A stretch of DNA of 64,000 nucleotides from Gemmatimonadales bacterium (GTDB lineage: Bacteria; Gemmatimonadota; Gemmatimonadetes; Gemmatimonadales; GWC2-71-9): NCBI GenBank assembly GCA_035699205.1, contig DASSBA010000222.1:33988-97987 (forward strand). Reading direction: 5' to 3'. Below, piece after piece: positions 11,535 to 62,371 of the stretch (position 1 is its first letter; the number at the start of each line of letters is the position of its first letter). The notes under the pieces were generated by a model that did not search any database, was not told where the DNA came from, and saw only the letters and a program-made list of their open reading frames with translations. The position numbers and the translations under genes were made by a program.

Positions 11535-11538
11535 TCGG

Positions 11539-11570
11539 AGTCGTGAATCATGGCCGGACTCACGACTTTC
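11539..11570 (+). terminator. hairpin just downstream of thyX
   Basis: 8-bp stem agtcgtga / tcacgact (11539-11546, 11560-11567) with a 13-nt loop, followed by ttctcc. The U-tract is weak. Confidence 0.35.
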
Positions 11571-11640
11571 TCCCCAAAAACTATTGTGCTCCCGAAACCT
11601 TTTCCTTACTTTAGTTTCGTCGAAGCACCTAACTCGTCGC

Positions 11641-11668
11641 GGCTCGTCTCTCGTGGACGGCCTTTTTT
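11641..11668 (+). promoter_or_regulatory. terminator-like hairpin plus T6 inside the leader of the ATP-grasp operon (candidate attenuator)
   Basis: ggctcgtc (11641-11648) pairs with gacggcc (11656-11662): 7 bp with one bulge and a 7-nt loop, then tttttt (11663-11668). GAGGGG and the TTG start at 11683 follow within 15 nt. Confidence 0.45.
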
Positions 11669-11682
11669 GTAGAGGGGCGCTC

Positions 11683-12789
11683 TTGGCAGTTCGGATCGGA
11701 CTCGCCTTCAATCTCAAGCCCGACGCACCGGCAAACACAGCGGCCGGGGCCACGACCGACCCCTCATCTCCGGACGAGCCCGACAGTCGGGCACTCCGCG
11801 ACGACCTTCCCCAACCCGATCTCTACGCCGAGTGGGACGAGCCCGCCACCATCGATGCGGTGGAGCGCGCGCTGAGCACCGTCGGCCGGGTCTACCGCCT
11901 CGAGGCCAACGCCAGCTTCGCCGCCAGGCTCGCGCTGGTCCGGCCGGACTTCGTCTTCAACATTGCCGAAGGGCTCTACGGGCCGAACCGCGAGGGGCAC
12001 GTCCCCGCCATCTGCGAGTTCCTCGGCATCCCCTGTCACGCCTCCGACCCGCTCACCCTCGGGCTCGCGCTCGACAAGCGGCGCGCCAAGGAAGTGATGT
12101 CGTACCACGGCGTGCCCACGGCGCCATTCGTCCTCGCCCGGAGCCCCGACGACGCCCGGAAGGTGCGGCTTCCCTTTCCGCTCTTCGTCAAGCCGGCGTT
12201 CGAGGGCTCGGGCAAGGGCGTCAGCGTGCGGAGCGTCTGCAAGACCCGGAGTCAGCTCGTAAAGCAGGTCTCGAAGCTGCTCGCGACGTATGCCGAGCCG
12301 GTGCTCATCGAGACCTATCTGCCGGGACCCGAGTTTACCGTCGCGGTGCTCGGCAACGGGAGCGAGGCGCGCTGCCTGCCCATCGTCGGCATGGACTTTG
12401 AAACGCTGCCGCGGGGTGCGCCGCCGATCTACGGCTACGAAGCGAAGTGGCTGTGGGATTCGCCGAGCCATCCACTGGAGATCTTCGACTGCCCGGCCAG
12501 GATTCCCGAGGCACTGGCCGAGGATGTTCGCGCCGCCGCGCTGGCGGCGTATCACGCGCTGGACTGCCGCGACTGGTGCCGCATCGATATCCGTTGCGAC
12601 GCCGCCAATCGCCCCATGGTCGTCGAATTGAACCCGCTTCCGGGCATTTTGCCCGACCCGCGGGACAATTCCTGCTTCCCGAAGGCCGCACGGGCCGCCG
12701 GGATGAGCTACGACGAGCTGATCCGTACCGTCGCCGACATCGCCTGGCGTCGGATCAGCGGCCGTTCACTTCTGGCGGAGGTGGCGTGA
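11683..12789 (+). CDS. D-alanine--D-alanine ligase-family ATP-grasp enzyme (paralogue 1)
   Basis: TTG 11683 preceded by GAGGGG. The N-terminus RIGLAFNLK aligns with KVAILYDAG of the next gene. Contains PLFVKPAFEGSGKGV, EPVLIETYLPGPEF, MVVELNPLPG. A low-complexity insert follows the first strand. Confidence 0.8.
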   Translation: MAVRIGLAFNLKPDAPANTAAGATTDPSSPDEPDSRALRDDLPQPDLYAEWDEPATIDAVERALSTVGRVYRLEANASFAARLALVRPDFVFNIAEGLYGPNREGHVPAICEFLGIPCHASDPLTLGLALDKRRAKEVMSYHGVPTAPFVLARSPDDARKVRLPFPLFVKPAFEGSGKGVSVRSVCKTRSQLVKQVSKLLATYAEPVLIETYLPGPEFTVAVLGNGSEARCLPIVGMDFETLPRGAPPIYGYEAKWLWDSPSHPLEIFDCPARIPEALAEDVRAAALAAYHALDCRDWCRIDIRCDAANRPMVVELNPLPGILPDPRDNSCFPKAARAAGMSYDELIRTVADIAWRRISGRSLLAEVA

Positions 12790-13799
12790 TGAAAGTGGCG
12801 ATCCTGTACGATGCCGGCAGCGACGAGTGGAGCCCGCAGGACGTCGCGGCGGTCGTGGGCAACGTCCACGAGGTCCGCGACGTCCTCCGGCGGCGGGGGC
12901 ACGAGGTCGAGCTGCTCCCGGTCCGCCTGGGCGACTTCCGCTGGCTCGGCCGCGTTCGCCGGGTCGACCTCGTCTTCAATCTCTGCGAGGGGATCAACGG
13001 CCACGCCCGGTACGAGGACCTGGTCGTCGGGACGCTCGAGCTTGCCGGCGTGGCCTTCACCGGCTGCCGCACCTGGCCCACCACCATCTGCCACCGGAAG
13101 CACGTCGCCAACACGCTGCTCTCGGCGGCCGGGCTGCCGGTTCCCGCGTTCATGCTGGCGCAGGCCAACAAGACGCCGGCCGAATTTCCGCTCCCGGCCA
13201 TCGTGAAGCCGTCGGCCGAGGACGCCAGCGTCGGCATCGACAACGGCGCGGTCTGCACCTCGAAGCGGGCGCTCAAGAAGCGGGTCGCCCTCATGCTCGA
13301 GCAGTTCGAGGAGGTGCTGGTCCAGGAGTACGTGGCCGGCCGCGAGTTCAATGTCGGCTTCGTCGGCAAGCGCATGCTGCCGATCGCCGAGATCCGCTTC
13401 GACGGGATGCCCGACGGCACCTGGCCGATCGTGAGCTATGCCGCCAAGTGGATTCCCGGAAGCCCCGAGGACGAGGGTACCGTCCCCATCTGCCCCGCCG
13501 ACGTGCCGGACGAGCTGGCCAGGCGCATCGGAGAGGTGGCCCGGCAGGCCTGGCTTCACATGGCGGGCGGCGAGGGCTACGGCCGAGTGGATCTCCGGGT
13601 CAACGAGGACGGCCAGCCCTACGTGCTCGAGGTCAACCCCTGCCCCGATCTTTCGAGCAACGCCGGCCTGGCCCGGATGGGCCGCTCGTTCGGCTGGAGC
13701 TACGACGATCTCGTCATGCACATCGTGGACGAGGCGCTGATGCGCTCCCAGACCCACACCGCCGCCGCGGCCCTGGTCAGCGGGGTGTCGGCCGCGTGA
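12789..13799 (+). CDS. D-alanine--D-alanine ligase-family ATP-grasp enzyme (paralogue 2)
   Basis: ATG 12789 overlaps the upstream TGA. Contains AIVKPSAEDASVGI, EEVLVQEYVAGREF, YVLEVNPCPD. Confidence 0.85.
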   Translation: MKVAILYDAGSDEWSPQDVAAVVGNVHEVRDVLRRRGHEVELLPVRLGDFRWLGRVRRVDLVFNLCEGINGHARYEDLVVGTLELAGVAFTGCRTWPTTICHRKHVANTLLSAAGLPVPAFMLAQANKTPAEFPLPAIVKPSAEDASVGIDNGAVCTSKRALKKRVALMLEQFEEVLVQEYVAGREFNVGFVGKRMLPIAEIRFDGMPDGTWPIVSYAAKWIPGSPEDEGTVPICPADVPDELARRIGEVARQAWLHMAGGEGYGRVDLRVNEDGQPYVLEVNPCPDLSSNAGLARMGRSFGWSYDDLVMHIVDEALMRSQTHTAAAALVSGVSAA

Positions 13800-14320
13800 G
13801 CGGCACGCTCACCCTGGCATCGCTCCGGAACCTCACCGCGGCCGACCGCGGCCGCATCGAGGAGATCAGCCGTGCGGTCGGTCTCTTCCGCCCGGACGAA
13901 ATCGCGGTCGCCCTCGAGGTCCTCGAGGGAGCCGTGGCGGGCTCGCCCGACTACATCGCTCTCGGCGCGGAGCACGAGGGTCGCCTGGCGGGTTGGATCT
14001 GCTGGGGCCCCACTCCGTGCACCCTCGGTACCTTCGACCTCTACTGGATGGCGGTGGACCCGGCGCTCCACGGCACCGGGATCGGCACCGCCCTCCTCCA
14101 TGCGATGGAACGGCGGCTGGCCGGCGTCGCCCGACTCATCGTCGTGGAGACCGCAGGCCGTCCGGACTACGCGCCCACCCGCGCATTCTACGAGCGGCGG
14201 GGGTACCGGGTCGCGTCCAGAATTCCCGAGTTCTACGCCCCGGGCGATGATCAGGTCGTTTACGTGAAGTCCCTCGGCGGCGAGGCCCGGGTCCCGAAGC
14301 CGCTCCGTGAGTCACCCTGA
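13796..14320 (+). CDS. GNAT family N-acetyltransferase
   Basis: GTG 13796 in a GTGA overlap. The acetyl-CoA loop-like LHGTGIGTALL and FYERRGY are typical of GNAT. Confidence 0.8.
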   Translation: MSGTLTLASLRNLTAADRGRIEEISRAVGLFRPDEIAVALEVLEGAVAGSPDYIALGAEHEGRLAGWICWGPTPCTLGTFDLYWMAVDPALHGTGIGTALLHAMERRLAGVARLIVVETAGRPDYAPTRAFYERRGYRVASRIPEFYAPGDDQVVYVKSLGGEARVPKPLRESP

Positions 14321-14367
14321 GCGAAGCGTGGGGACATGCGATCGGGCATGGCTCCTACGCTTCCCGC
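14311..14367. repeat. degenerate REP-like palindromic element
   Basis: gtcaccctgagcgaagcgtgggga (14311-14334) faces tcctacgcttcccgc (14353-14367) around an inner palindrome catgc...gcatg (14335-14350). It resembles the GTCATCCCGAGCGGAGCGAGGGATC unit at 37889. Confidence 0.55.
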
Positions 14368-14418
14368 TGGACGGCTCTACAATGGAATCGTGCTCTAGGC
14401 AGGAGGACGGGTAGCGTC

Positions 14419-15543
14419 ATGGAAACCTGGCAAGAGGTTCTCAAGAACAACTCGATCAAGTCCCTCGACGCGCTCGCGGCCAAGTTCGGCCCCGAGCACT
14501 TTCCCGACCTCGACCGCCTGCGGCAGGCGGCCGAGAACTTCGAGTTCCGGATCTCGCCCGCCATGGTGGACCTGATCAGGTCGCCCGACGACCCGATCTG
14601 GCGGCAGTATATCCCTACGGTGGACGAGCTGGACATCGTGGACGGGATCGTGGACTCGCTCAACGAGGACGCCGACAGCCCGGTCCCCAACATCACCCAC
14701 CGCTATCCCGACCGGGCGCTTTTCCTGGTGAGCCCGGTCTGCGCCAGCTACTGCCGCTTCTGCACCCGGCGGCGCAAGGTGGGCGACCCGGAAAAGATCC
14801 CGATGTCGCAGTTCGAGAGTGCGTTCCAGTATCTCGAGCAGCACACCGAGATCCGGGACGTCATCATGTCGGGAGGCGACCCACTGCTGCTCAACGACCG
14901 GCGGCTCGAGGCCATCCTCACCCGGCTCCGGGCCATCCCGCACCTCGAGATCATCCGGGTCGGAAGCCGGGTGCCGTGCCACCTTCCCGAGCGGATCACG
15001 CCCGAGCTGTGCGCCACCCTCAAGCGGTTCCACCCGCTCTGGATCAACACCCACTTCAACCACCCCGACGAGCTCACCCCGGCCGCGGTGAAGGGCCTGG
15101 GCATGCTGGCCGACGCGGGCATCCCGCTGGGCTGCCAGACGGTGCTGCTCAAGGGCGTGAACGACGATCCCGAGGTCATGAAGCGGCTGATGCAGCGGCT
15201 GCTCGTGGCGCGGGTGCGGCCTTACTACATCTACATGGCCGACCAGGTGGCCGGTGCCGAGCACTTCCGGACCAGCGTTCAGACCGGCATCAAGATCATG
15301 GAGGCGCTCCGGGGCTGGACCAGCGGCCTGGCCAACCCACACTTCGTCATCGACGCGCCGGGCGGCGGCGGGAAGATCCCGCTCCTGCCGGAGTACGTCG
15401 TGAGCATGAGCGACGAGGAGGTCGTGCTCCGCAACTTCCGCGGCCAGCAGTACGTGTACCGCCAGCCGCGGGAGGAGCCCGGCGTGATCACTCTCAAGCA
15501 GGAACGCAAGCGCGCCGCCCGGCGGGGGCGCCGGAGCGCGTGA
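14419..15543 (+). CDS. kamA: KamA-family radical SAM aminomutase, lysine 2,3-aminomutase type
   Basis: 374 aa. CASYCRFC (CxxxCxxC), SGGDPLLL, HFNHP, VIDAPGGGGKIP (PLP lysine). Full-length resemblance to clostridial LAM. Confidence 0.9.
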   Translation: METWQEVLKNNSIKSLDALAAKFGPEHFPDLDRLRQAAENFEFRISPAMVDLIRSPDDPIWRQYIPTVDELDIVDGIVDSLNEDADSPVPNITHRYPDRALFLVSPVCASYCRFCTRRRKVGDPEKIPMSQFESAFQYLEQHTEIRDVIMSGGDPLLLNDRRLEAILTRLRAIPHLEIIRVGSRVPCHLPERITPELCATLKRFHPLWINTHFNHPDELTPAAVKGLGMLADAGIPLGCQTVLLKGVNDDPEVMKRLMQRLLVARVRPYYIYMADQVAGAEHFRTSVQTGIKIMEALRGWTSGLANPHFVIDAPGGGGKIPLLPEYVVSMSDEEVVLRNFRGQQYVYRQPREEPGVITLKQERKRAARRGRRSA

Positions 15544-34560: not shown

Positions 34561-34592
34561 CCCTGCTGTCACCGCGCCGATGGAGGCAAATC

Positions 34593-34802
34593 ATGCGGGA
34601 TCTCACGTTGCATATCGAAGGGATGAGCTGCAGCCACTGCCTGGACGCGGTGAGCCGCGCGCTCGTCGATCTCCCGGGAGTCGAGATCGAGTCGCTGAGG
34701 ATCGGCCGTGCGGACCTCCGGTACGACGAGCGCGCCCTCGAGCCGTCGAGCATCGAGGCCGCGGTCACCGGTGCCGGGTACCCGGCCAGAGCCGCACCAT
34801 GA
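34593..34802 (+). CDS. copZ: heavy-metal-associated (HMA) copper chaperone
   Basis: ATG 34593 after GGAGG. 69 aa with GMSCSHC (MxCxxC). Confidence 0.8.
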   Translation: MRDLTLHIEGMSCSHCLDAVSRALVDLPGVEIESLRIGRADLRYDERALEPSSIEAAVTGAGYPARAAP

Positions 34803-35185
34803 CAGCCGCACAGGTGATCGTGACCGTGCTCGGTCTCGCCGCCGTGGCCTGGGTGAACTGGTACTTCTTCCTCGCGGGCCGCGGCGCCGCCGCGGTGGCG
34901 GCGAGCGATGGGTCGGGTCCGCAGCGGGTGCGTGTCGAGGTGAAGGGCGGCTATTCGCCCGCGGTCGTGCGGGTTCAGGCCGACCGGCCGGTGCGGCTGG
35001 AATTCCATCGCGACGAGACCGGCAGCTGCACCGAGGAGGTCGTGCTGCCGGACTTCGGCATCCGCGCTTTTCTGCCGGCGCACCGCACTACGCCGGTCAG
35101 CTTCACGCCCGCGGAGGGTAGCTACGAATTCACCTGCGGGATGGGGATGGTGCGCGGGAAGATCATCGCGGAGAGGGCCCGGTGA
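34799..35185 (+). CDS. membrane-anchored cupredoxin-like domain protein
   Basis: ATG 34799 in an ATGA overlap. N-terminal TM helix, then a ~100 aa beta domain ending FTCGMGM, as seen in proteins encoded beside copA. Confidence 0.65.
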
Positions 35186-37437
35186 CCGACTCGTGCACCA
35201 TCCCCGTGACGGGCATGACCTGCGCCGCCTGCAGCGGGCGGGTCCAGCGGACGCTGGAGAAGACGCCGGGCGTGGCTGAGGCCAGCGTGAACCTGATGAC
35301 GGGGGCGGCCACCGTGGCCTACGATCCGGTCGTCACGACGCCCGAGCGGCTGGTGGACTCGATCCGCTCCACCGGCTACGGCGCCGAGCTGCCGCTCCCC
35401 GGGGAATCGGGCGAGGAGCTGCTGGACGCGCGTGATGCCGCGCGCGCCGAAGAAGTGCGGGAGCTCCGGCGCAAGTTCGCCGTCAGCGCCGCTTCGGCGG
35501 TCATCTCGATGCTGTTCGGCACGCTGCACCAGACCATGTCCTCGGGCGCCAGATATCTGCTGCTCGCGCTGACGCTCCCCGTGGTCGGGTGGGCCGGTCG
35601 CCACTTCTATACCCGGGCGTGGGCGGCGTTCCGTCACCACGGCGCCGACATGAACACGCTGATCGCGGTCGGCACGGGCGCCGCGTTCCTCTTCAGCGCG
35701 GCGGTCACGCTGTTCGACCGGTGGTTCATGGCACACGGCGTGGAGCCGCACGTCTACTACGAGGCGGTGATCTGGATCATCGCCCTGGTGCTGCTCGGGA
35801 ACCTGCTGGAAGCCCGCGCCAAGGGTCACACGTCCGGCGCCCTTCGCCGGCTGATCGGACTCCGTCCCGCCACCGCGCGGGTGCTGCGCCAGGGACGCGA
35901 GGAGGACGTCCCGCTCGCGGCGCTCCGCCCTGGCGACGAGGTGGTCGTCCGGCCGGGTGAGACGGTCCCCGCGGACGGCACCATCCTCGACGGCGCCAGC
36001 AACGTGGACGAATCGATGCTCACCGGCGAGCCGATTCCGGTTGCCAAGCGCGCGGGGGACCCGGTCATCGGTGCCACCCTCAACCGAAACGGCGCCTTCC
36101 GCTTCCGCGTGGAGCGGGTAGGGCGCGACACGGTGCTCTCGCGCATCATCCGCCTGGTGCAGCAGGCGCAGGGCACGCGCGCGCCCATCCAGCGGCTCGC
36201 CGACCGGATCTCGGCGGTGTTCGTGCCGGTCGTGCTCTCGATCGCCATCCTCACCTTCGTCGTCTGGTTCGACCTGGGCCCGGCCCCGGCCTACCTCCAC
36301 GCGCTCGTCTCGGCGGTGACGGTGCTGATCATCGCCTGCCCCTGCGCCATGGGGCTCGCGGTGCCGACGGCGGTCATGGTGTCGACCGGCCGCGGAGCCG
36401 AGCTGGGCGTGCTCATCAAGGGAGGTGAGGCGCTGGAGCGGAGCCAGGCGATCGACACCATCGTGTTCGACAAGACCGGCACGATCACCGAGGGCCGTCC
36501 CACGGTGCGGTCGGTGCAGCTCGCGCCCGATCCCGACGTCGCGGCGCTTTTCGATGACGAGCGGCTGCTGGCGCTGGCCGCCGCCGTCGAGCGCCTCAGC
36601 GAGCACCCGTTGGCCGAGGCCATCGTCGCCGAGGCCGAGCGGCGTGGCGCGGCTGTCCCGCGCGCCACCGGATTCGAGAGCCGGACCGGCCGCGGCGTCG
36701 TGGGACGGGTGGATGGGCGCGAAGTCGCGGTGGGGAACGCCGCGCTGCTTCGCGAGCTCGGTGTGGACCCGGCGCCGCTGGCCGGGCAGGCCGATGCGCT
36801 GGCGTCGCAGGGGCGCACGCCGATGCATGTGGCCGTCGCGGGCCGTCTGGCGGGACTCATCGCCGTCGCCGATCCGGTCAAGCCCGCCAGCCGCGCGGCC
36901 GTCGGCGAGCTCGGGCGCCTCGGGCTGGAGACGGTCATGCTGACGGGCGATAACCCGCGCACGGCCGCGAGCGTGGCCCGGGCGGTCGGTATCGGCCGCG
37001 TCGTGGCCGGAATCCCGCCCGAACGAAAGCTCGAGGAAATCCGGGCACTGCAGGCCGAGGGCAGGGTCGTGGCCATGGTGGGTGACGGCCTGAACGACGC
37101 CCCGGCGCTCGCGCAGGCGGACGTGGGGATCGCCATGGGCACCGGGACCGACGTGGCCATGGAAGCGGGGGCGATCACGCTCATGCGCGGCGACCCGCTC
37201 GGCGTCGTGACCGCGATCCGGCTTGCCCGGCGGACCATGCGGATCATCCGGCAGAACCTGTTCTGGGCCTTCGTGTACAACGTCATCGGGATCCCGATTG
37301 CCGCGGGCGTGCTCTACCCGGCGTTCGGCCTCCGGCTCACCCCGGCGATGGCGGCCGCCGCCATGGCCGTGAGCTCGGTGAGCGTCGTCTCCAACAGCCT
37401 GCGGCTCCGCCGCTTCACGCCGGAAGGACAGCCATGA
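35182..37437 (+). CDS. copA: copper-translocating P-type ATPase
   Basis: Contains [10 protein letters not shown] (HMA), the CPC motif ([10 protein letters not shown]), DKTGTIT, and GDGLNDAP. Confidence 0.95.
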
Positions 37438-37775
37438 GCGAGCCCGTCGTCTCCTGCGCCTGCGGCGCCCGTCCAGGCGACGGCACCCACGCCGTGGCCG
37501 TCGACCCCGAGATCAAGCACGCCGTCCTCACCCGGCTTCGCCGGATCGAGGGTCAGATGCGCGGCCTGCAGAAGATGGTGGATGAGGAGCGCTACTGCGC
37601 CGACGTGCTGGCGCAGGTGTCGTCGGTGCAGGAAGCGCTCCGCGGCGTGAGCCGCTCGCTGCTGCATAATCATCTGAAACACTGCGCCAGCGAGGCCATC
37701 CGGTCGGCGGACCCGGAGCGCTCGGAGGCGATGTACCAGGAGTTGCTGGAGCTGGTGTTTCGGGCGAGCAGATGA
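37434..37775 (+). CDS. csoR: CsoR/RcnR-family metal-sensing repressor
   Basis: ATGA overlap with copA. Contains [22 protein letters not shown], and HLKHC (Cys-His-Cys ligand pattern). Confidence 0.85.
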
Positions 37776-37776
37776 C

Positions 37777-38016
37777 GGAAGGGCAGAAAGGCGGAAGGAC
37801 GGAAAGGCGGAAGGACGGAAAGGCGGAAAGGCGGAAAGGCGGAAAGGTAGACAAGTAGACAGACAGAACGTCGCATGGTGCCGAGACGGTCATCCCGAGC
37901 GGAGCGAGGGATCTGGCCGGGCCGAGCTCGGACTCGGGAGAGTAGATCCCTCGCTCCGCTCGGGATGACAGACTGGCTCGGCACGTCCTTCCGCCTTTCC
38001 GTCTTTCCGCCCTTCC
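37777..38016. repeat. composite palindromic element (MITE/BIME-like)
   Basis: Left octamer/16-mer array GGAAAGGC(GGAAGGAC) at 37777-37848. Perfect 26-bp inverted repeat gtcatcccgagcggagcgagggatct (37889-37914 / 37944-37969) around a ccgagctcgg palindrome. Right inverted array gtccttccgcctttccgtctttccgcccttcc at 37985-38016. It fills the csoR/MFS convergent gap exactly. Confidence 0.8.
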
Positions 38017-39516
38017 CTATCTCTCCACCAGCTCCCGATGCATGTCCCTCCCCAGCGTCCGCATCGCCCCCAGCACGACGGCCCCCCCGATGATCACCAC
38101 TACCGGCAGCAGCAGGATGGCGCGGTCGAGCCCGAACCGGTCGCTCAGGCTGCCCACCAGCGGCAACGCGATCGCATCCCCGGCGAGGTGAATGAACAGC
38201 AGATAGGCGCCCGCCACCGTGGCGCTGATGCGCGGGGGCACGACGTCGAAGATCACGGCCGTCATCGGTCCGGTGTACCACGAGAGGCAGAAGAAGGCCA
38301 CCGCGAATACCGCCTGGAAGAGCGCGGGATCGCGGATGGTGAGAAGCCAGAGCGCCAGCGGCCCACCGAGCAGCAGCCCGAGCGCCACCACGATCACGCG
38401 CGCCGTTTCCCACCGCCGCCGGAGCCAGTCGGCGAGCACGCCGCCGAAGAGTGTGCCCGCGGTTCCCGAGATGAGCCCCCACTTGCCCAGCAGCCCCGCC
38501 GCTTCGGCGGAGCTCAGGTCGAGCTCGCGGGAGACGAACGTGGGCCCCCAGCCCACGATGCCGTTCAGGCCGAAGGAGATCATCGCCCCGGCGAGGAAGA
38601 CGTACACCAGCGTCGGCGTGTGCAGCACCGTGCGCCCCGCGCGGACGATTTCGTCGAACGCCCCGCTGATCCCGCTGCCGAACGAGGTATCCGCCGCCAC
38701 GTCCGCGGGCGTGCGCCGCACCCAGCGGAAGATCGTGAGCGCGAGCCCGAGTCCCAGGGCTCCGCTGAAGACCGCGAGATCCACGGTGGAACCGGCGCCG
38801 TACTGGCGGTCCAGCCAGTAGGCCGCCGTGCCGCCGAGGGCCATTGCCACGAGCAGCGGCCACAGGTTCCGCACCAGCGGCATGACGCCGATGCCGAAGT
38901 CGCGCAGGAACGACCGGACCGTGAGGCGCGCGGGGGTCCGCGTCGGGTCGATCAGCCGGGAGACGAGCACCGCGAGGATGAAGCCGGGTACGCCCACCGT
39001 CATGAACGCCACCCGCCATCCGTACACGCCCTCGAGGTGCCCGCCGAGCAGGAGTCCGAGCACGCCGCCGAGCGCGATGCCGGAGGAGAGGATCCCCATC
39101 GCCACCGCGCGGCCGCGGGCCGGGAAGTAGTCGGCCACGAGCGACGCCGCCGCGGGCCCGTAGGCTGCCTCGCCCACGCCGACAGCCGCGCGGCAGGTGA
39201 AGAGCTGCCCGAAGGAGTTCACGAGCCCGCTCAGGAACGTGAACGCGCTCCACACCGTCACCCCGCCCGCGATGACCGCGCGGCGCGAGCGCAGGTCGCT
39301 CAGCACGCCGAAGGGCAGCGCGGAGACCGAGAAAACGAAGATGTAGGCGGAACCCAGCCAGCCGAGCTGCGAGTCGGTCAGCGCGAGGTCGCGCTTGATC
39401 GGCTCGAACAGGGCGTAGATGACGTTCCGGTCGACGTAGTTGAGGAGGTTGATGAGGGCGAGCAGTCCGAGCGCATACCAGCTGTACGCCCGGCCAGGCG
39501 GTGCCGGTGGGGTCAC
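38017..39516 (-). CDS. MFS transporter
   Basis: 499 aa with about 12-14 TM helices. N-terminal [15 protein letters not shown] is typical of MFS. GTG start in a GTGA overlap with the upstream gene. Confidence 0.85.
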
Positions 39517-40688
39517 CGGCGCGCCGCCGTCTCGGTTCCCCCGGCGCCCGGGTGCATGTGGGCCAGCGACTCCTCCGCGCGCTCGTCGCGGAAGGCGAGG
39601 GCCGCCTTGTACTCCTGCACCAGCCGGTCCATCATCGCCTGGCGCTTCCCATATAGGCGCTTGAGCGGGCGCGCAGCGTGCCGCTCCATGGCGTACGCCG
39701 TGAGCAGCGGCAGCGCGATCGAGTTGTCGGTGTACACGACCACCGTGCCCGGGAGCTGGTCGGGATCGATCTTGCCCCAGCTCACCGCCTCCGCGGGCGT
39801 GGCGCCGCTGAGGCCGCCCGTGTCGGGGCGTGCGTCGGTCATCTGGAGGAAGTAGTCGTGGCCGCGTTCGTCGATCCCCAGCACCTCCTGGATCTGGGGC
39901 TCGGTTTGCAGCATGAAGTTCTTGGGGCTCCCTCCGCCCACGATCAGCACCCCGCTCTTCCCGCCGGTACGCTTGGCCTCGAGTACGATGCTCGCCGTCT
40001 CGTTCACGTCGGCGCTGACGTCGAACCGGAGCTTGCTGCCGGCCAGCGCCTGCTCGGCCACGTTCATCCCGATCGAGCTGTCGCCCGGAGAGCTGGTGTA
40101 GAGCGGCACCTCGAGCTCGTGCGCCGCCGCCAGGACCGAGCGGCGCGAAAGGCCGAGGGCCCGCTCGCGCTCGCGTACGTAGCCGCCGAGGAGGTGATGG
40201 TACTCGGCCGAGCTCATGGGGCGCTGGAACTCGGGCCGGGCGGAGACTTCCCGGATGAACGCGTCGGTCGAGAGCAGCACGCTGTAGTCGAAGAAGATGT
40301 CGTAGATGCGGACCACACCTTTGTCGCGGAGCTCCACGTCGTCTGCGGTCGGTGTGCCGCGATGCATCGCCAGCCCGAGAGCGAAGTGCGCGTCGTGGTA
40401 GAGATTGGCCCCCGTCGAGATGACCCAGTCCACGAATCCCGCCTCCATGAGCGGGATGAGGCAGCTCATGCCCAGCCCGGCGGGTGTCATCGCGCCGGTG
40501 AGGGTCATTCCCACCGTGGTGTCCGGCTCGAGCATCCGCCGGGTGAAGAGCTGACAGCCTTCGCGGAGCCGGCCGGCGTTATAGGCCAGGAACGCGTCGT
40601 CGATCAGCGCGGCCGCCGTTTCGCCGCCCGCGATGGGCCTGGGCTCGATGCGCTGGCCGCGCAGAAACTGGTCCGAGGGTCTGGTCAT
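39513..40688 (-). CDS. deoxyhypusine synthase-family protein (bacterial DHS-like)
   Basis: 391 aa. Full-length DHS-like pattern ([47 protein letters not shown]...EAVSWGK). Confidence 0.85.
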
Positions 40689-40692
40689 CTGG

Positions 40693-41448
40693 TCATCCCA
40701 TGATGCGGGCGGCCGCGTCTTCGGGCTTCGCCGCGCGCGCCTCGATGACGATCCGTGCCGCCTCGGCCGGATCGTCGGTGACGCGGAACAGCAGCAGGTC
40801 CGTCGGGTTGATCTTGCGCTCCTCGGCCACCGTGCGGGTGAGCCACTCCACCAGCCCGGCCCAGTATGCGCTGCCGAATAATATCACCGGGAAATGCTTC
40901 ACCTTGCCGGTCTGGATCAGCGTGAGCGCCTCGAACAGTTCGTCGAGCGTGCCGTAACCGCCGGGGAAGACGATGAACGCGGTGGCGTACTTCACGAACA
41001 TCGTCTTCCGCACGAAGAAGAACTTGAAGTTGAGGCTGCGGCTGAGGTACGCGTTGGACCCCTGCTCGAACGGCAGCTCGATGTTGCATCCGATCGAGAG
41101 CCCGCCGCCTTCCTTCGCACCTCGGTTGGCCGCCTCCATGATGCCGGGCCCGCCGCCGGTGATGACCGGAATGCCGGCCTGCGCCAGGAGCATCGTCGTC
41201 TGCACGGCCTTCACGTACAACGGGTCCATCGGCGTGGTGCGGGCGGAGCCGAACACCGTCACCCCTTCGTACACGTCGGCCAGGTGATCGAATCCCCAGA
41301 CGAATTCGCCCATGATGCGGAGTACCCGCCACGAATCCGACTTCTGAAACAGCTGCTCCGGGCGCTGCGGCGACGGGCTCTCCAGCAGCTGCTCGTCCTC
41401 GGTGGGGAGCTTGTTATCGTCGAGCCGGCGGTAGGGGCTATTGGTCAC
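40693..41448 (-). CDS. LOG / TIGR00730 family Rossmann-fold protein (formerly annotated lysine decarboxylase-like)
   Basis: Contains GGGPGIMEA and PGGYGTLDE motifs. GTG 41448 overlaps the upstream gene by 11 nt. Confidence 0.85.
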
Positions 41449-42586
41449 GGGTGAGTCGCTCGATGGCCGCCCGGTGGTCGTCCGGGACATTGTAGAAGTA
41501 AGGGGAGATCCGCACGTGGCCGGGTCGGCTGTCGGCCACGATGCCGGCGGCGGCCAGGCGGCGGACGGCCGCCGCCGGATCGGCATTCGGCAGCATGACG
41601 ATGCCGGTGCGGCGATCGGGCTCCGCGGCGACCCGGGGCCGGAGGCCCGCCGCACGGGCCTGCTCGATCAGGTCCTCGGCCAGCGCCATGGTCCGGCGGC
41701 GGAGTTCCAGGTCACCCAGTTCTTCGAGCAGTTCGAGCCCGCCGAGCTGGGCGTAAACCGGCATGAGCGGTGGGGTGCCGGCTTCGAGCCGGCGCGCGTC
41801 GTCGTGGAGCTGGAGCGACCGGGGGTCGAAGCGGAACTGGTCCCGGTGCGCAAACCAGCCGCTCGCCCTCGGCGCGAGGGTGGGCAGCAGCTCGGGGCGC
41901 GCGTACATGAACGCCACCCCGGCGCCGCCGAGCAGCCACTTGAGGCCGCCGCTGCAGTAGAAGTCCACATCGAGCGCCCGTACGTCCACCGGGAGCTGGC
42001 CGGCGGCCTGGTAGCCGTCCACGAGGAGCAGCGCGCCGCGCCGGTGTGCCGCCTCGGCCACAGCGTGCACGTCCTGGATGGCCCCGGTGGCGTACCAGAC
42101 GTGACTGGTGGCGACGAGGGCGGTCCGGTCGTCCACCGCGCGGGTAATCGCCTCGACGGGCAGCGAGATCCCGTCGGGACTCTCCACCATCACCAGCTCG
42201 ATCCCCTCGCCCGCCCGCGCCAGCCACTGGTACGCGACAGTGGGAAAATCGAGGCTCGTCACGACCACCTTGGGCCGGCGGCGATAGTCGAGCGATTCGG
42301 CCACCGCCGCGAGGGCCGACGAAATGCTGGAATGCAGCGCGACCGAGCCCTCCGGTGCCCCGATCCAGCGCGCGTAGCGCGACCGCAGTTCGGCCAGCGC
42401 CGCCCACCATACGTCATACCACGCCGCGGCCCCGCGGGTCTCCCAGGCATCGAGGTACTGGTTGACCCGGGCGCGCGAGCGCGACGACAGCGGCCCGAGG
42501 GAGCAGCTGTTGAGATAGATGGCCTGGCGGAAAATCGGGAATTCCGCCCGATAGTCCCGGGGCGGCGCCGGGGCGGCGACGGGCAT
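41438..42586 (-). CDS. aminotransferase class V-fold PLP-dependent enzyme
   Basis: ATG 42586. Contains YLNSCSLGP and CSGGLKWLLGG (putative PLP lysine). Cysteine-desulfurase/kynureninase-like fold; subfamily not resolved. Confidence 0.8.
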   Translation of the reverse strand: MPVAAPAPPRDYRAEFPIFRQAIYLNSCSLGPLSSRSRARVNQYLDAWETRGAAAWYDVWWAALAELRSRYARWIGAPEGSVALHSSISSALAAVAESLDYRRRPKVVVTSLDFPTVAYQWLARAGEGIELVMVESPDGISLPVEAITRAVDDRTALVATSHVWYATGAIQDVHAVAEAAHRRGALLLVDGYQAAGQLPVDVRALDVDFYCSGGLKWLLGGAGVAFMYARPELLPTLAPRASGWFAHRDQFRFDPRSLQLHDDARRLEAGTPPLMPVYAQLGGLELLEELGDLELRRRTMALAEDLIEQARAAGLRPRVAAEPDRRTGIVMLPNADPAAAVRRLAAAGIVADSRPGHVRISPYFYNVPDDHRAAIERLTRDQ

Positions 42587-42654
42587 GGTGGACAATATAG
42601 GTGGGCCGCGGGCCGCGCTACGCTCGGGATGAGGGTGTGCATATACTTCGGCCC

Positions 42655-42909
42655 ATGTCATGGCCCTCCCTCGCGCTCCGGCTGTTCGGCCGCGGTCTCG
42701 TCAACCCGCGCCTGGGAATGGATCTGCTCAGGACCGCCTGGGCGTTCCGCCGCCGCGCCTGGTGGTCCCGCCGGCCGTTCCTGCCGCTCCCCGATCGGGA
42801 GTACCTGCGGTGGCGGATGTACACGGCCTACGCCGACGAATCCGCCGTGCCGCCGGCCGGTGATGTCATCCGCTTCGCGCGGTGGCGCCGAGAGACGATG
42901 GGGCTCTGA
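42655..42909 (+). CDS. hypothetical small Arg/Trp-rich protein
   Basis: ATG 42655, 84 aa. Its stop lies 2 nt before the ndh ATG. No family recognised. Confidence 0.4.
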   Translation: MSWPSLALRLFGRGLVNPRLGMDLLRTAWAFRRRAWWSRRPFLPLPDREYLRWRMYTAYADESAVPPAGDVIRFARWRRETMGL

Positions 42910-42911
42910 CG

Positions 42912-44207
42912 ATGAGCGCACCCCATGTGCTCATCCTCGGCGGCGGGTTCGCGGGAATCTACGCGGCCAAGGCGCTCAGGAACGTGCCTGTCCGGGTCAC
43001 GGTCATCGACCGGCGCAACCATCACCTCTTCCAGCCGATGCTCTACCAGGTGGCGACCGCCGGGCTCAACCCGAGCGACATCGCCTCGCCGATCCGGTCG
43101 ATCCTCCGCGGCTCCGCCAATACCGAGGTGCTGCTCGCCGAGGCCGACGCGATCGATGTCGAGCGGCGGGAGGTGCGGCTCGGTGATGGCACGGCCATGT
43201 CCTATGATTATCTGATCGTCGGCACCGGCGCGCGGCACTCGTATTTCGGGCACGACGAGTGGGAGCCGCTCGCCCCGGGGCTCAAGAGCCTCGAGGACGC
43301 GCTCGACATCCGCCGGCGCGTGCTGCTCGCCTTCGAGCGCGCCGAACGGGAGAAGGACGCGGTCCGCCGCCACGCGTTTCTCACGTTCGTCATCGTGGGA
43401 GGCGGACCGACCGGCGTCGAGATGGCCGGCGCCGTCGCCGAGATCCGGCGCTACGCGCTCCGCCGCGACTTCCGGCACATCGACCCCGCGGAGGCCACGG
43501 TCATGCTGCTGGAGGGCGGCCCCCGCCTCCTGCCCTCCTACCCCGAGAGCCTGAGCACCGAGGCCAAGCACGAACTCCGGCGGCTCGGGGTCGAGGTACG
43601 GACGGAAACCCTCGTGACCGACATCCGGCCGGGCTGGGTGTGCGCCGCGGGCTGGACCATCCCCACCCAGACGGTCGTGTGGGCGGCCGGCAACACGGCA
43701 AGCCCGTTGCTCCGGAGCCTGGGCACCCCGCTCGATCGAATGGGCCGTGCCATCGTCGAGCCCGACTGCACCATCCCGGGCCATCCCGAGGTCTTCGTCC
43801 TGGGCGATGCCGCTCATTTCGACCGGCCGGGCGGTGAGCCGCTCCCGGGGATCTCGCCCGTCGCGATCCAGATGGGCGAGTACGCGGCGCGGACCATCGA
43901 GGGCGACCTGGCCGGCCGGCCGCGCCGCGCGTTCAGCTACTGGGACAAGGGGCAGCTCGCGGTCATCGGCCGGGGTCGGGCGGTGGCGGACATCTGGAAG
44001 CTCCACTTCGGCGGCTTTCTCGCCTGGATCGTCTGGATCTTCGTGCACGTCTTCTTTCTCATCGGCTTCCGCAACCGGGTGCTGGTGCTGCTGCAGTGGG
44101 CCTGGTCCTACGTCACCTACCGCCGGGGAGCGCGGCTGATCACGGCGGAGGTCCAGCCGCCGGTCACCTCCCCGACACCGGCCGGCGCCCGCGCCGCGTC
44201 GCCGTGA
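42912..44207 (+). CDS. ndh: type II NADH dehydrogenase (NDH-2)-like FAD oxidoreductase
   Basis: Two dinucleotide folds, ILGGGFAGIY and VIVGGGPTGVEMAG. C-terminal membrane-associated helices. Confidence 0.85.
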   Translation: MSAPHVLILGGGFAGIYAAKALRNVPVRVTVIDRRNHHLFQPMLYQVATAGLNPSDIASPIRSILRGSANTEVLLAEADAIDVERREVRLGDGTAMSYDYLIVGTGARHSYFGHDEWEPLAPGLKSLEDALDIRRRVLLAFERAEREKDAVRRHAFLTFVIVGGGPTGVEMAGAVAEIRRYALRRDFRHIDPAEATVMLLEGGPRLLPSYPESLSTEAKHELRRLGVEVRTETLVTDIRPGWVCAAGWTIPTQTVVWAAGNTASPLLRSLGTPLDRMGRAIVEPDCTIPGHPEVFVLGDAAHFDRPGGEPLPGISPVAIQMGEYAARTIEGDLAGRPRRAFSYWDKGQLAVIGRGRAVADIWKLHFGGFLAWIVWIFVHVFFLIGFRNRVLVLLQWAWSYVTYRRGARLITAEVQPPVTSPTPAGARAASP

Positions 44208-56037: not shown

Positions 56038-56933
56038 CCCTGAAAGGGCCGGCCGAGGATCAGCTCGAGAAGGCGGGCGAGATCGTCGTTGGAGTAGTAG
56101 CTGACGGTGAGAAAGCCGCGCCCGCGACGCCGGGTCGTGAGCCGCACATCGGTGCCGAAGTGCTTGCGGAGTGCGTCCTCGACGCGGCGCGCGTCGGCGG
56201 CAACGGCGCGCTGGGCAGGCCGGGCGCGCTTCGGGGCGGGTGCGCCTTCGGGGGATCCGCCGGCAGGGCCATCCCCCCGGACGCGCGCCTCGATCTCCCG
56301 CACCGACCAGCCCTCGTCCACCGCTTGGCGGGCCAGGCTGATCATCGCCTCCGACTCGGCGAGCGCGAGCAGCGCACGCGCGTGGCCTTCGGAAAGCTTG
56401 CGCTCGTGCACCAGCGCCTGCACCTCCGGTGGGAGTTGCAGCAGGCGGAGCAGATTCGCGACCGTGCTCCGGTTCCGGCCGACCAGGCGCGCGATCTCCG
56501 CCTGAGGCAACTGGAACTCCGTGCCGAGTCGCTGGTAGCCTCCGGCCTCGTCGATCGGCGAAAGGTTGTCGCGCTGGAGATTCTCGATGAGCGCCAGGGT
56601 GAGAAGCGTCGGGTCATCGACGTCCTTCACGACGGCGGGGATCCTGGTCCAGCCGAGCTTGGTGGCCGCGCGCCAGCGGCGCTCGCCAGCGATGAGCTCG
56701 TAGCCGCCGTTCCGCGGGCGGACGATCACCGGCTGCAGGAGTCCGGAGGCCCGGATCGATGCCACCAGTTCGTCGAGCGGCCCCTCGTCCATCCGCGTGC
56801 GTGGCTGAAACGGATTGGGCTTGATGCTCGACATGGCAAGTTCGCGCAGGGCGCCCGACGCCTCGGCCTGCTCGCGCGACACCGGACCGAGCAGCGCCTC
56901 GAGTCCACGCCCCAGCCGCTTCGTCTCGCTCAC
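56034..56933 (-). CDS. parB: chromosome partitioning protein ParB
   Basis: GTG 56933 in a GTGA overlap. Contains KRLGRGLEALL, GERRWRAA, and the HTH segment EIARLVGRNRSTVANLLRLL. Confidence 0.9.
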   Translation of the reverse strand: MSETKRLGRGLEALLGPVSREQAEASGALRELAMSSIKPNPFQPRTRMDEGPLDELVASIRASGLLQPVIVRPRNGGYELIAGERRWRAATKLGWTRIPAVVKDVDDPTLLTLALIENLQRDNLSPIDEAGGYQRLGTEFQLPQAEIARLVGRNRSTVANLLRLLQLPPEVQALVHERKLSEGHARALLALAESEAMISLARQAVDEGWSVREIEARVRGDGPAGGSPEGAPAPKRARPAQRAVAADARRVEDALRKHFGTDVRLTTRRRGRGFLTVSYYSNDDLARLLELILGRPFQG

Positions 56934-57745
56934 GTGGCCACCTCTGGCAGCGGCTCGGGGGTCTCGGAGACGGTGGCGCCCTCCAGCCGACGCATCAGCT
57001 CCTGCGCCACGGAGAGATAGCTCTTGGCGCCCACCGACTGGACGTCGTAGAGGAGGATCGGTTTGCCGAAGCTCGGCGCCTCGGCGAGGCGCACGTTCCG
57101 TGGGATCGGCGTGACGAACATCTTGCCGCCGAAGTACTCCTTGGCGTCCTCCGCCACCTGACGGCACAGGTTGAGGCGCGAGTCGTACATGGTGAGGAGC
57201 ACGCCGCTGATCGCGAGTCCGGGATTGAAGTTCTGCTGGACGAGGCGGACGGTGTTGAGCAGCTGCGAGATCCCCTCGAGTCCGTAGTACTCGCACTGAA
57301 TGGGGATGAGCACCGTGTTGGCGGCGGCGAGCACGTTGAGGGTGAGCAGGCCGAGTGAGGGTGGGCAGTCCACTACCATATAGTCGTAGTCGTCGTGCAG
57401 GGTGTCGAGCACGCTGCGGAGTGCCGACTCGCGGTTGTCGCGCTCGACCAGCTGCAGCTCGGCGCCCACCAGGTCCTGAGTCGCGGGGAGCACCGAGAGG
57501 TGGGGGAGCGCCGAGACGGGAAGGATCACCTCTCGCGGTGGCCGCCCTTCGACGATGGAGTCGTAGAGCGTGAGCTCCAGCTCGTGCTTGACGATACCAA
57601 GACCGCTCGTGGCGTTCCCCTGGGGGTCCGCGTCCACCAGCAGCGTACGTCGCTCGGCGATGGCCAGCGAGGCGGCGAGGTTGACTGCGGTCGTCGTCTT
57701 CCCGACGCCGCCCTTCTGGTTGGCGATGGCTACAATATGGGCCAT
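56930..57745 (-). CDS. parA: chromosome partitioning ATPase ParA/Soj
   Basis: 271 aa. Deviant Walker A NQKGGVGKTTT. Confidence 0.9.
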   Translation of the reverse strand: MAHIVAIANQKGGVGKTTTAVNLAASLAIAERRTLLVDADPQGNATSGLGIVKHELELTLYDSIVEGRPPREVILPVSALPHLSVLPATQDLVGAELQLVERDNRESALRSVLDTLHDDYDYMVVDCPPSLGLLTLNVLAAANTVLIPIQCEYYGLEGISQLLNTVRLVQQNFNPGLAISGVLLTMYDSRLNLCRQVAEDAKEYFGGKMFVTPIPRNVRLAEAPSFGKPILLYDVQSVGAKSYLSVAQELMRRLEGATVSETPEPLPEVAT

Positions 57746-57876
57746 GAATCCAGCCGAGCTGTAAGTTGTTTTGCGACAACGGCTTACAGTGATTCAAGCC
57801 GATTTGTCAGGCGGGCGGCGCGGGACTGCGATTGGGTCAATATAGAAGGTGAGACGTGGGGCGCCAACTGGCGAAC

Positions 57877-60686: not shown

Positions 60687-61133
60687 TCAAATGGTTGGCT
60701 GGGCGGTACCGCGATCGAGCGCGGCCTTCAACGTATGCCACGACAGGCTGGCGCACTTTACCCGAATCGGAAACTCCGATACTCCCGAGAACACTGCGAG
60801 CTTGCCCAGGGTTTCCGCGTCTCCGGGCGCGAGCGCGCCGGTCACGAGCCGGTGGAATCGGTCGAACAGCAGCGCGGCCTCCTGGCGAGTCTTTCCCTTG
60901 ACCGCACTCGTCATGAGGGAGGCGGACGCCCGGGAGATGGCGCAACCGGAGCCCTGGAAGCTCACGTCCTCGATGACGTCGCCCTTCGTCCGAATCCAGA
61001 CCGTGAGCTGGTCGCCACACAGGGGGTTGTGGCCCTCGGCGTGCCGGTCGGCGTCGGCCATGGGCCGGTAGTTCCTCGGCGACCGGTTGTGCTCGAGGAT
61101 GACGTTCTGGTACAGCTCGCTGAGGCTCGACAT
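60687..61133 (-). CDS. sufU: SUF-system zinc-dependent sulfurtransferase / scaffold SufU
   Basis: Contains NPLCGD, GSGCAIS, and RVKCASL (three conserved Cys). Confidence 0.9.
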   Translation of the reverse strand: MSSLSELYQNVILEHNRSPRNYRPMADADRHAEGHNPLCGDQLTVWIRTKGDVIEDVSFQGSGCAISRASASLMTSAVKGKTRQEAALLFDRFHRLVTGALAPGDAETLGKLAVFSGVSEFPIRVKCASLSWHTLKAALDRGTAQPTI

Positions 61134-62371
61134 CAGGCGAACAGCGTCCGCACCCGGCGCAGCCCGCGCGCGAGCGCGTCGATCTCCTCACGGGTGTTGT
61201 AGAACGCGAACGAGGCGCGGACGGTGGCCGGCACACCGAACCGGCGCATGACCGGCTGGGCACAGTGGTGTCCGGCGCGAACCGCGATCCCCTCGTCGTC
61301 GAGCACGGCGCTCACGTCGTGGGGGTGCACGCCGTCGACGACGAACGAGAGCACGCCGGCCTTCCGCCGCGCGGTGCCGACGAGCCGGAGGCCGTCCAGG
61401 TCGCCGACCTGCTCGGTTGCGTACGCCAGCAATTCGTCCTCCCGCGCGCCGATCGGGCCGAATCCGAGTGAGCCCACGTAGTCGAGCGCGGCACCGAGCC
61501 CGATGACCGCGGCGATCATCGGCGTGCCGGCCTCGAACCGCGCCGGCGGCCGGGCGAATGTGCTCCCCTCCAGCGTGACGGTTTCAATCATGTCGCCGCC
61601 GCCCTGCCACGGCGGCATCCGCTCAAGCAGCGCCTCCCGCCCGTACAGCACGCCGACCCCGGTCGGCCCGAACACCTTGTGCCCCGAGAAGGCCAGGAAG
61701 TCGCAGCCGAGCGCCTGGACGTCCACCGGCAGGTGCGGGGCGGCCTGGGCGCCGTCCACCAGCGTCACCACGCCATGCTCGCGCGCCCGCGCCACCAGCT
61801 CGCGAACCGGATTGATGGTGCCGAGCGCGTTGGAAATGTAAGTCAGCGCCAGCAGCCTGGTGCGGTCGGTGAGCAGCCGGTCGAAGGCGTCGAGATCGAG
61901 CTCGCCGGAATCGGTGATGGGGACGGCGCGCACCGAGGCTCCCGTCTGGCTGGCGAGCAGCTGCCACGGGACCAGATTCGAGTGGTGCTCCATCCCGGTG
62001 ACGAGAATCTCGTCCCCGGGCTGGACCGTACTGCGTCCCCAGCTCTGGGCGACGAGGTTGATCGCCTCGGTGGTCCCCCGGGTAAAGACGATCTCGCCGG
62101 GAGATGACGCGTTGAGGAACCGGGCGATCCGCCCCCGCACCGCCTCGTACGCTCCGGTGGCGCGTTCGCTCAGGAAGTGTACCCCGCGGTGAATATTCGC
62201 GTTCTCGGCCGAGTAGAACCGGCCGACCGCATCGATGACGCTCCGCGGCTTCTGGCTGGTGGCGGCATTGTCGAGGTAGACGAGGGGCTTGCCGCGCACC
62301 CGCTGCGAGAGGATCGGGAAATCCTTGCGCAGCTGCTCGACGTCGAGTCCCGCGGTTGCGGTGGCCGTCAT
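61133..62371 (-). CDS. sufS: cysteine desulfurase SufS
   Basis: Contains FSGHKVFGPTG (PLP lysine) and RAGHHCAQP (catalytic Cys). Confidence 0.9.
   Translation of the reverse strand: MTATATAGLDVEQLRKDFPILSQRVRGKPLVYLDNAATSQKPRSVIDAVGRFYSAENANIHRGVHFLSERATGAYEAVRGRIARFLNASSPGEIVFTRGTTEAINLVAQSWGRSTVQPGDEILVTGMEHHSNLVPWQLLASQTGASVRAVPITDSGELDLDAFDRLLTDRTRLLALTYISNALGTINPVRELVARAREHGVVTLVDGAQAAPHLPVDVQALGCDFLAFSGHKVFGPTGVGVLYGREALLERMPPWQGGGDMIETVTLEGSTFARPPARFEAGTPMIAAVIGLGAALDYVGSLGFGPIGAREDELLAYATEQVGDLDGLRLVGTARRKAGVLSFVVDGVHPHDVSAVLDDEGIAVRAGHHCAQPVMRRFGVPATVRASFAFYNTREEIDALARGLRRVRTLFA

Follow-up and report, generated by a model that had tools for sequence, protein, structure and literature searches.

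Why a bacterium should carry a homolog of deoxyhypusine synthase (DHS) inside a tight gene cluster is the question raised by positions 38017-42586 of the DNA analyzed here, a 64-kb stretch from a member of the Gemmatimonadales (the window). Four minus-strand open reading frames (ORFs) fill this interval in the order PLP5, a pyridoxal phosphate (PLP) enzyme of class V fold; LOG; SpeY, the DHS homolog; and MFS, a transporter. The initial annotation assigned these four families, and Pfam and NCBIfam scores bear the assignments out. It also held that bacterial DHS-like proteins are mostly uncharacterized, a view that is outdated, as Anabaena SpeY, Thermus CdmS, and diverse SpeYs have been characterized (PMC10981699; PMC13625781). 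The apparent orphan DHS is a SpeY, of a family whose chemistry was settled between 2024 and 2026, and our main result is a correction: the operon should not be taken for a new biosynthetic pathway. We consider it moderately probable that the cluster is one polycistronic operon with a LOG-SpeY core, belonging to the agmatine-dependent homospermidine pathway, and with PLP5 and MFS as accessory genes. The agmatine-dependent route would thereby extend to the Gemmatimonadota, an abundant and little-cultured soil phylum in which the usual partner enzymes of SpeY are not encoded beside it.

SpeY and the probable agmatine route to homospermidine

What the DHS homolog is can be read from its family scores. 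The protein scores 549.7 bits against NF001980, the NCBIfam equivalog model of the homospermidine biosynthesis protein (cut-off 450), and covers profile positions 1-349 of 350. Models of true DHS all fall below their cut-offs: TIGR00321 gives 173.3 against 304.25, NF002006 gives 226.4 against 434, and NF002630 gives 204 against 364. The SpeY P0271, which comes from another lineage and has a Por_Secre_tail gene at its locus, is 63% identical to the window protein and also passes NF001980, and a Longimicrobiaceae ortholog bears the NCBI name "homospermidine biosynthesis protein." Its similarity to solved DHS structures is distant (38-69 bits).

The active site points the same way. The window SpeY shares with eukaryotic and archaeal DHS the Pfam DS domain, the NAD-binding GGGxxK motif, and the catalytic lysine of the SWGK motif; this residue, K306, aligns to the imine-forming lysine K329 of human DHS (K299 in CdmS), at a position that is near-invariant in 21 diverse homologs. 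The guanidino-binding glutamate is also kept (E300, human E323). Unlike DHS, however, the window protein has replaced both aspartates that bind the spermidine amines in the human enzyme, Asp243 by Met208 and Asp316 by Leu293, and has Asn257 in place of His288. Met208 and Leu293 are invariant in seven aligned homologs that are 42-65% identical to the window SpeY. We know of no eIF5A substrate to be expected in bacteria. In the Thermus homolog CdmS, Asp243 and Asp316 are likewise replaced, by Phe204 and Leu286, and Glu293 and the catalytic lysine are kept (PMC10981699). Thus, the window protein shares with SpeY and CdmS (Anabaena SpeY and Thermus TTHA1570) the NF001980 family, the catalytic lysine, the glutamate, and hydrophobic replacements of both aspartates. 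We file it as a member of the SpeY family because of the NF001980 pass, the CdmS-type residues, and the identity to P0271. It scores 164.1 against the Thermus-type model NF002699 (cut-off 500); the chemistry is predicted to be that of the Thermus type in a different SpeY subfamily.

How SpeY makes homospermidine has been worked out elsewhere. Homospermidine in Anabaena requires SpeY, according to passages citing that work in two papers (PMC10407285, PMC9992855). CdmS joins two agmatines into a bis-guanidino precursor of homospermidine (PMC10981699). In a 2026 study, all SpeYs tested, from several phyla, made N1,N9-bis(guanidino)homospermidine (G44G) from two agmatines; G44G is converted to homospermidine by an agmatinase-type ureohydrolase or an iminohydrolase, and it is made neither by eukaryotic DHS nor by bacterial homospermidine synthase (HSS) (PMC13625781). 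Because the window protein passes the SpeY model and has CdmS-type residues, and because all tested SpeYs make G44G, ordinary homospermidine synthesis is its likely function. The initial annotation had thought simple homospermidine formation less likely, a view to which the family score and these residues run counter. Bacterial HSS, a relative of carboxyspermidine dehydrogenase, would have the same end product, but it differs in its non-homologous fold, its dependence on putrescine, and its failure to make G44G (PMC13625781). No HSS-type domain was found among the Pfam matches of the cluster proteins.

We propose that SpeY with bound NAD would oxidize agmatine to leave a guanidinobutyl-imine on Lys306, transfer the guanidinobutyl group to a second agmatine, and then reduce the product to G44G. 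Homospermidine would then be formed from G44G by a ureohydrolase or iminohydrolase whose gene lies elsewhere. LOG would hydrolyze nucleoside 5'-monophosphates to the free base and ribose 5-phosphate. As accessory proteins, PLP5 would act on a substrate that is probably an alpha-amino acid, and MFS may move a polyamine or guanidino-polyamine. Transcription would probably start at or next to the PLP5 ATG at 42586 and end at the hairpin at 38016-37776.

Some SpeY homologs carry additional segments. The Gemmatimonadaceae proteins (L036-L080) have a conserved N-terminal extension, ~40-70 residues long, basic, and probably disordered, of the form ...RERGGFKASRHG...KASAAGPKAEQKRAAEERERAG..HTSHE. The window SpeY lacks this extension and bears a C-terminal tail instead. 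A GGFKASRHG stretch of the extension is faintly like the hypusine loop of eIF5A, a likeness that we mention as speculation. Inteins with Intein_splicing, Hint, and HNH domains split two homologs, P0122 (645 residues) and P0137 (725 residues), at a site just past the equivalent of window residue 296, within the invariant GGLSGATP motif. No SpeY match was found in phage records, and plasmid records gave only DHS-like genes 26-32% identical to the window SpeY.

Conservation of the LOG-SpeY pair

Which genes of the cluster belong together was judged by their conservation. We sampled 80 SpeY loci from species-representative genomes plus 2 more (82 in all) and located the four proteins by tblastn. 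Counts refer to Gemmatimonadota loci with enough flanking sequence, that is, 58, 50, or 48 loci depending on the test. LOG lies directly upstream of SpeY on the same strand in 54 of 58 loci. PLP5 lies upstream of LOG in 23 of 50, and MFS lies downstream of SpeY in 27 of 58. Where all genes could be scored, all four were present in 16 of 48 loci, LOG alone accompanied SpeY in 20, LOG and PLP5 in 6, and LOG and MFS in 4. The initial annotation had made co-conservation of the neighborhood a check on its reading, and the outcome is split: PLP5 and MFS are not co-conserved with SpeY, and LOG is, across the phylum.

PLP5 is missing even where SpeY is 88-90% identical to that of the window. In four of these loci (L005, L007, L008, and L009), a 9-codon mini-ORF takes the place of PLP5 after a TATATT-ATG start; its overlap with the LOG start measures 11 nt in L007 and L008, the same geometry as that of PLP5 in the window. 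By sequence comparison, the mini-ORF is what an in-frame deletion left of PLP5, with the putative promoter and the coupling to LOG retained. Moreover, PLP5 and MFS are, to judge from the comparison of loci, genes that were gained or lost repeatedly and independently in close relatives. Such variation speaks against a single pathway in which each of the four genes is an obligate step.

The LOG-SpeY pair spans the Gemmatimonadales, Gemmatimonadaceae, and Longimicrobiaceae, and its other flanks vary. In the closest relatives, the pair is flanked by NDH-2 and copper genes. In a subclade of Gemmatimonadales (L022-L035), MFS comes next, and after it two further genes, one for a D-Ala-D-Ala-ligase-like ATP-grasp protein and one for a zinc-ribbon/Peptidase_Mx protein. 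The Gemmatimonadaceae pair has a divergently oriented gene for a nucleotide pyrophosphatase/phosphodiesterase upstream, with genes for GreA and a metallo-beta-lactamase-fold protein downstream. In Longimicrobiaceae (L087, 8034-9197), a Peptidase_M20 gene begins 3 nt after SpeY. The ATP-grasp, Peptidase_Mx, and Peptidase_M20 neighbors are possible amide-forming or amide-hydrolyzing partners. Gemmatimonadaceae loci seemed to have a 150- to 260-nt gap between LOG and SpeY, but this stretch is the basic N-terminal extension described above, which is conserved and in frame with SpeY. Of 24 loci examined, 22 have a true distance between -41 and +93 nt; L063 (510 nt) and L073 (312 nt) are the outliers. 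A riboswitch between LOG and SpeY in Gemmatimonadaceae was considered and rejected, as the apparent intergenic element is coding.

Outside the Gemmatimonadota, LOG stands beside SpeY in 1 of 15 genome loci. That sole exception is a contig binned as Rhodanobacteraceae that looks Gemmatimonadota-like and is probably misbinned. Search patterns were built from a 7-sequence SpeY alignment, since a 21-sequence alignment was too divergent. A profile search for distant SpeYs was dominated by Gemmatimonadota and added two contexts from other lineages, and LOG is beside SpeY in neither. Distant context was filled by a metagenome scan with an alignment of distant SpeYs, in which LOG was beside SpeY in 0 of 74 loci that are not Gemmatimonadota-like; in all six metagenome loci with LOG, SpeY is 69-76% identical to that of the window. 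Twelve distant metagenome loci have an arginase-family ORF in the ~6 kb that flank SpeY, and in five of them it comes directly after SpeY, an arrangement that matches published speY-speB/duh clusters (PMC13625781). Compared with the speY clusters described, the window has no adjacent gene for arginine decarboxylase, agmatinase/DUH, or AIH/NCPAH and has a type II LOG instead (PMC13625781). An association of LOG with SpeY was not found in the literature searched, and the study of SpeYs in several phyla does not mention LOG (PMC13625781).

The LOG of the window is, by sequence, an ordinary type II (hexameric-type) LOG. It passes TIGR00730 (141.9; cut-off 96.35), and its best solved relatives are all of type II: 5zi9 (250 bits), 5wq3/Cg1261 (234 bits), and 1wek/Tt1465 (219 bits). 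It shares with them an N-terminal extension, here of ~60 residues before the domain, and a PGGxGTLDE motif, here PGGYGTLDE, with the type II aspartate before the catalytic glutamate. The extension and the aspartate are type II criteria (PMC5379747). Against NF058542, the equivalog model of cytokinin riboside 5'-monophosphate phosphoribohydrolase, the protein scores 44.6, below the cut-off of 300. Type II LOGs have phosphoribohydrolase activity and no lysine decarboxylase activity, and their usual neighbors are dapE, folP, gpgS, and a methyltransferase gene, with no DHS homolog among them (PMC5379747). The window LOG differs from the reported type II LOGs in having speY as its genomic partner.

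Several points weigh against an operon with a LOG-SpeY core in the agmatine route. No gene for arginine decarboxylase or agmatinase/DUH was detected in the 64-kb window or within ~8 kb around SpeY at 87 loci, in weak motif scans for arginase-family and alanine-racemase-fold decarboxylase motifs. Because those scans found none near SpeY, the remaining pathway genes are assumed to lie elsewhere in the genome. Agmatine as the substrate of Gemmatimonadota SpeY is itself carried over from characterized relatives, and the proposed promoter and terminator come from sequence only: a sigma-70 consensus scan gave no promoter, and a simple terminator scan gave nothing relevant inside the cluster. Finally, the tight retention of LOG beside SpeY throughout the phylum argues that the two are not unrelated passengers, and it is left unaccounted for.

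That retention is the strength of the best-surviving alternative, in which LOG and SpeY are a functional unit and LOG acts on, supplies, or regulates the agmatine/homospermidine route, for example by way of an intermediate linked to a nucleotide or by controlling the NAD/adenylate pool. LOG holds its place while all other flanks change, it is absent near SpeY elsewhere, and the physiological role of type II LOGs outside plant-associated bacteria is open (PMC5379747). However, no known LOG chemistry touches polyamines, the family lacks the decarboxylase activity that its old name implies, and the SpeYs of other lineages cluster with genes for arginine decarboxylase and agmatinase-type enzymes. 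Moreover, the pair is confined to one phylum, and it could instead reflect two housekeeping genes whose co-expression was selected and inherited. We therefore regard a functional unit as unlikely. We are equally doubtful of its extended form, in which LOG-SpeY is an ancient selected unit with LOG in or controlling polyamine synthesis and, together with PLP5 and MFS, might make or export a modified guanidino-polyamine. The pair is nevertheless a testable handle on the cellular role of type II LOGs, and a true coupling would be their first physiological role outside cytokinin activation.

Less likely still is the reading from which this work began, one dedicated four-protein pathway for a new small molecule, derived from a polyamine or a nucleotide and different from homospermidine, that the cell would either make and export or import and modify. 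The genes would be translationally coupled behind one conserved promoter box, their order recurs in 16 of 48 loci, one subclade adds an ATP-grasp ligase and Peptidase_Mx, and PLP5 fits no curated family, all of which would suit such a pathway. It is weakened, however, by the independent absence of PLP5 and MFS where LOG and SpeY are kept, by the clean deletion of PLP5 in relatives with a SpeY 88-90% identical to that of the window, and by the window SpeY itself, which is an ordinary, equivalog-level member of its family. That the DHS-like protein is a true deoxyhypusine-type enzyme, which would use spermidine to aminobutylate a lysine in EF-P or some other bacterial protein, is very improbable, for the homologous fold, the conserved catalytic lysine, and the Lys-rich motif in the basic extension of Gemmatimonadaceae SpeY are set against the DHS equivalog scores far below cut-off, the loss of both spermidine-binding aspartates, and the finding that SpeYs form no deoxyhypusine (PMC9992855).

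PLP5 and the MFS transporter

What PLP5 does is less readily read from its family. The protein matches Pfam Aminotran_5 with 128.8 bits, and its nearest solved relative is the Pseudomonas kynureninase 1qz9 (117 bits). With kynureninase and SufS-type class V enzymes it shares the fold, the PLP lysine (K216, Lys227 of 1qz9), and the pyridine-binding aspartate (D190, Asp201). Extending the alignment makes R359 the probable counterpart of the carboxylate-binding Arg375 of kynureninase. PLP5 nevertheless scores below both cut-offs, with 93.9 against 246.4 for kynureninase TIGR01814 and 102.8 against 475.1 for the SufS model, and the tyrosine that precedes the PLP lysine in 1qz9 (Tyr226) is lost to L215. 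It has just two cysteines, C28 and C211, and the C-terminal 100 residues are free of them. Because no cysteine follows residue 211, PLP5 lacks a desulfurase-type catalytic cysteine. Kynureninase was rejected as its identity on the score and the Tyr226 replacement, and a SufS/CsdA/NifS cysteine desulfurase was rejected on the low score and the missing C-terminal cysteine. By these alignments, PLP5 is kynureninase-like yet outside every curated family. Homologs are named inconsistently across sources, as kynureninase or as cysteine desulfurase. An AlphaFold model was poor (mean pLDDT of 58), built on a shallow alignment of sequences 81-88% identical.

A theme of NAD metabolism was also considered, to join the kynureninase-like PLP5, LOG, the NAD-dependent SpeY, and NDH-2. 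It was rejected because PLP5 fails the kynureninase tests and, further, because adjacency to NDH-2 is limited to the closest relatives. We note that a genuine SufS-family desulfurase is encoded elsewhere in the window, at 61133-62371 (minus strand), with a TIGR01979 score of 594.6 against 475. Against the model of the family 2A encapsulin cargo desulfurase it reaches 672 of the required 800, over the C-terminal catalytic part only.

The MFS protein matches MFS_1 with 163.6 bits and is of 12-helix-type length. Its best solved relative is a bacterial Spinster homolog (HnSpns, 6e8j), followed by human SPNS2. It differs from these Spinster transporters in that the alignment is significant in the N-terminal half only. 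To our knowledge, the Spinster family has no established link to polyamines.

Gene junctions, proposed transcript boundaries, and neighborhood

The features of the cluster are collected below.

Features of the four-gene cluster and its proposed boundaries, in window coordinates
Feature	Position	Strand	Remarks
PLP5, class V-fold PLP enzyme, 382 aa	41438-42586	-	Pfam Aminotran_5; facultative first gene
LOG, type II TIGR00730, 251 aa	40693-41448	-	Lysine_decarbox/LOG; conserved partner of SpeY
SpeY, DHS homolog, 391 aa	39513-40688	-	Pfam DS; NF001980
MFS transporter, Spinster-like, 499 aa	38017-39516	-	MFS_1; facultative last gene
TATATT, -10-like box	42594-42599	-	7 nt 5' of the first ATG; inferred leaderless promoter
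Nested inverted repeat/hairpin	37776-38016		Fills the gap between convergent stops; probable bidirectional terminator

How tightly the four genes are joined was settled by direct reading, which confirmed the junctions given by the initial annotation. The PLP5 stop codon (TAG, 41438-41440) lies within an 11-nt overlap with LOG, which starts at GTG 41448; the LOG stop codon (TGA, 40693-40695) is separated by 4 nt from the SpeY ATG at 40688; and the SpeY stop overlaps the MFS start at GTGA, 39513-39516. The 11-nt overlap assumes that LOG starts at GTG 41448, whereas the longest LOG ORF would start at 41655. The GTG is supported because L007 and L008 have an ATG at the homologous codon and because independent gene calls in relatives give PLP5/LOG overlaps of 8 and 4 nt. 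The overlapping or abutting stops and starts would couple the translation of all four genes. The same gene order, mostly with short gaps or overlaps, recurs among the Gemmatimonadota loci counted above, and the arrangement is thus beyond chance.

Where transcription begins is suggested by a single short box. TATATT occurs only twice in the window. As TATATT-N5-9-ATG, the box precedes the first gene in 23 of 23 PLP5-bearing loci (24 of 24 counting the window) in an alignment of upstream regions, and it also precedes LOG in 5 loci without PLP5. In many loci, the box before the cluster is the sole TATATT within 17 kb. Its conservation, in the window 7 nt before the ATG, suggests a -10 box driving a leaderless operon mRNA. 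The other TATATT of the window, at 57839-57844 (minus strand), lies ~95 nt upstream of a gene for a ParA/MinD-like ATPase (56930-57745).

At the other end, a nested inverted repeat (repeats I1-I8) takes up all 240 nt between the stop codons of CsoR and MFS. Its RNA is predicted to fold with -143.4 kcal/mol, a z-score of -12.15 against shuffled sequences. Given this stability and its position between convergent stops, the hairpin is probably a bidirectional terminator and the 3' end of the operon. The outer arms are tandem units of the GGAAAGGCGGAAGG type, and inside them lies a hairpin with a perfect 24-nt arm, CATCCCGAGCGGAGCGAGGGATCT, which was found at no other site of the window and at none of the 87 loci. 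No Rfam family matched in the window. The boundaries, derived from comparative alignment and folding, strengthen the operon reading of the initial annotation, and the four genes would form a single transcript with one promoter and no internal terminator.

The window has a G+C content of ~70%, and the closest homologs of its proteins come from metagenome-assembled genomes of Gemmatimonadales. The divergent flank of the cluster carries a small ORF and NDH-2 (42655-44207, plus strand). The small ORF (42655-42909, 84 residues) is conserved and has no Pfam match. A -10-like TATACT box lies 7 nt 5' of its ATG (42642-42657, plus strand), and L003 has TATAAT-N6-ATG at the equivalent position. Both divergent units look leaderless and appear to have a common 68-nt control region. 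The convergent flank encodes a cupredoxin-like protein, a CopA P-type ATPase, and a CsoR-type repressor (34580-37775, plus strand), a copper resistance set that is syntenic in the closest relatives only.

Farther away, at 11467-15543 (plus strand), two tandem Ddl-like ATP-grasp genes are followed by a gene for a KamA-family radical-SAM aminomutase. The aminomutase is nearest to lysine 2,3-aminomutase (441.8 against a cut-off of 525) and is not EpmB. One of the ATP-grasp genes shares 33% identity with the one found after MFS in other loci, and the region may be a cluster for beta-amino acid ligation.

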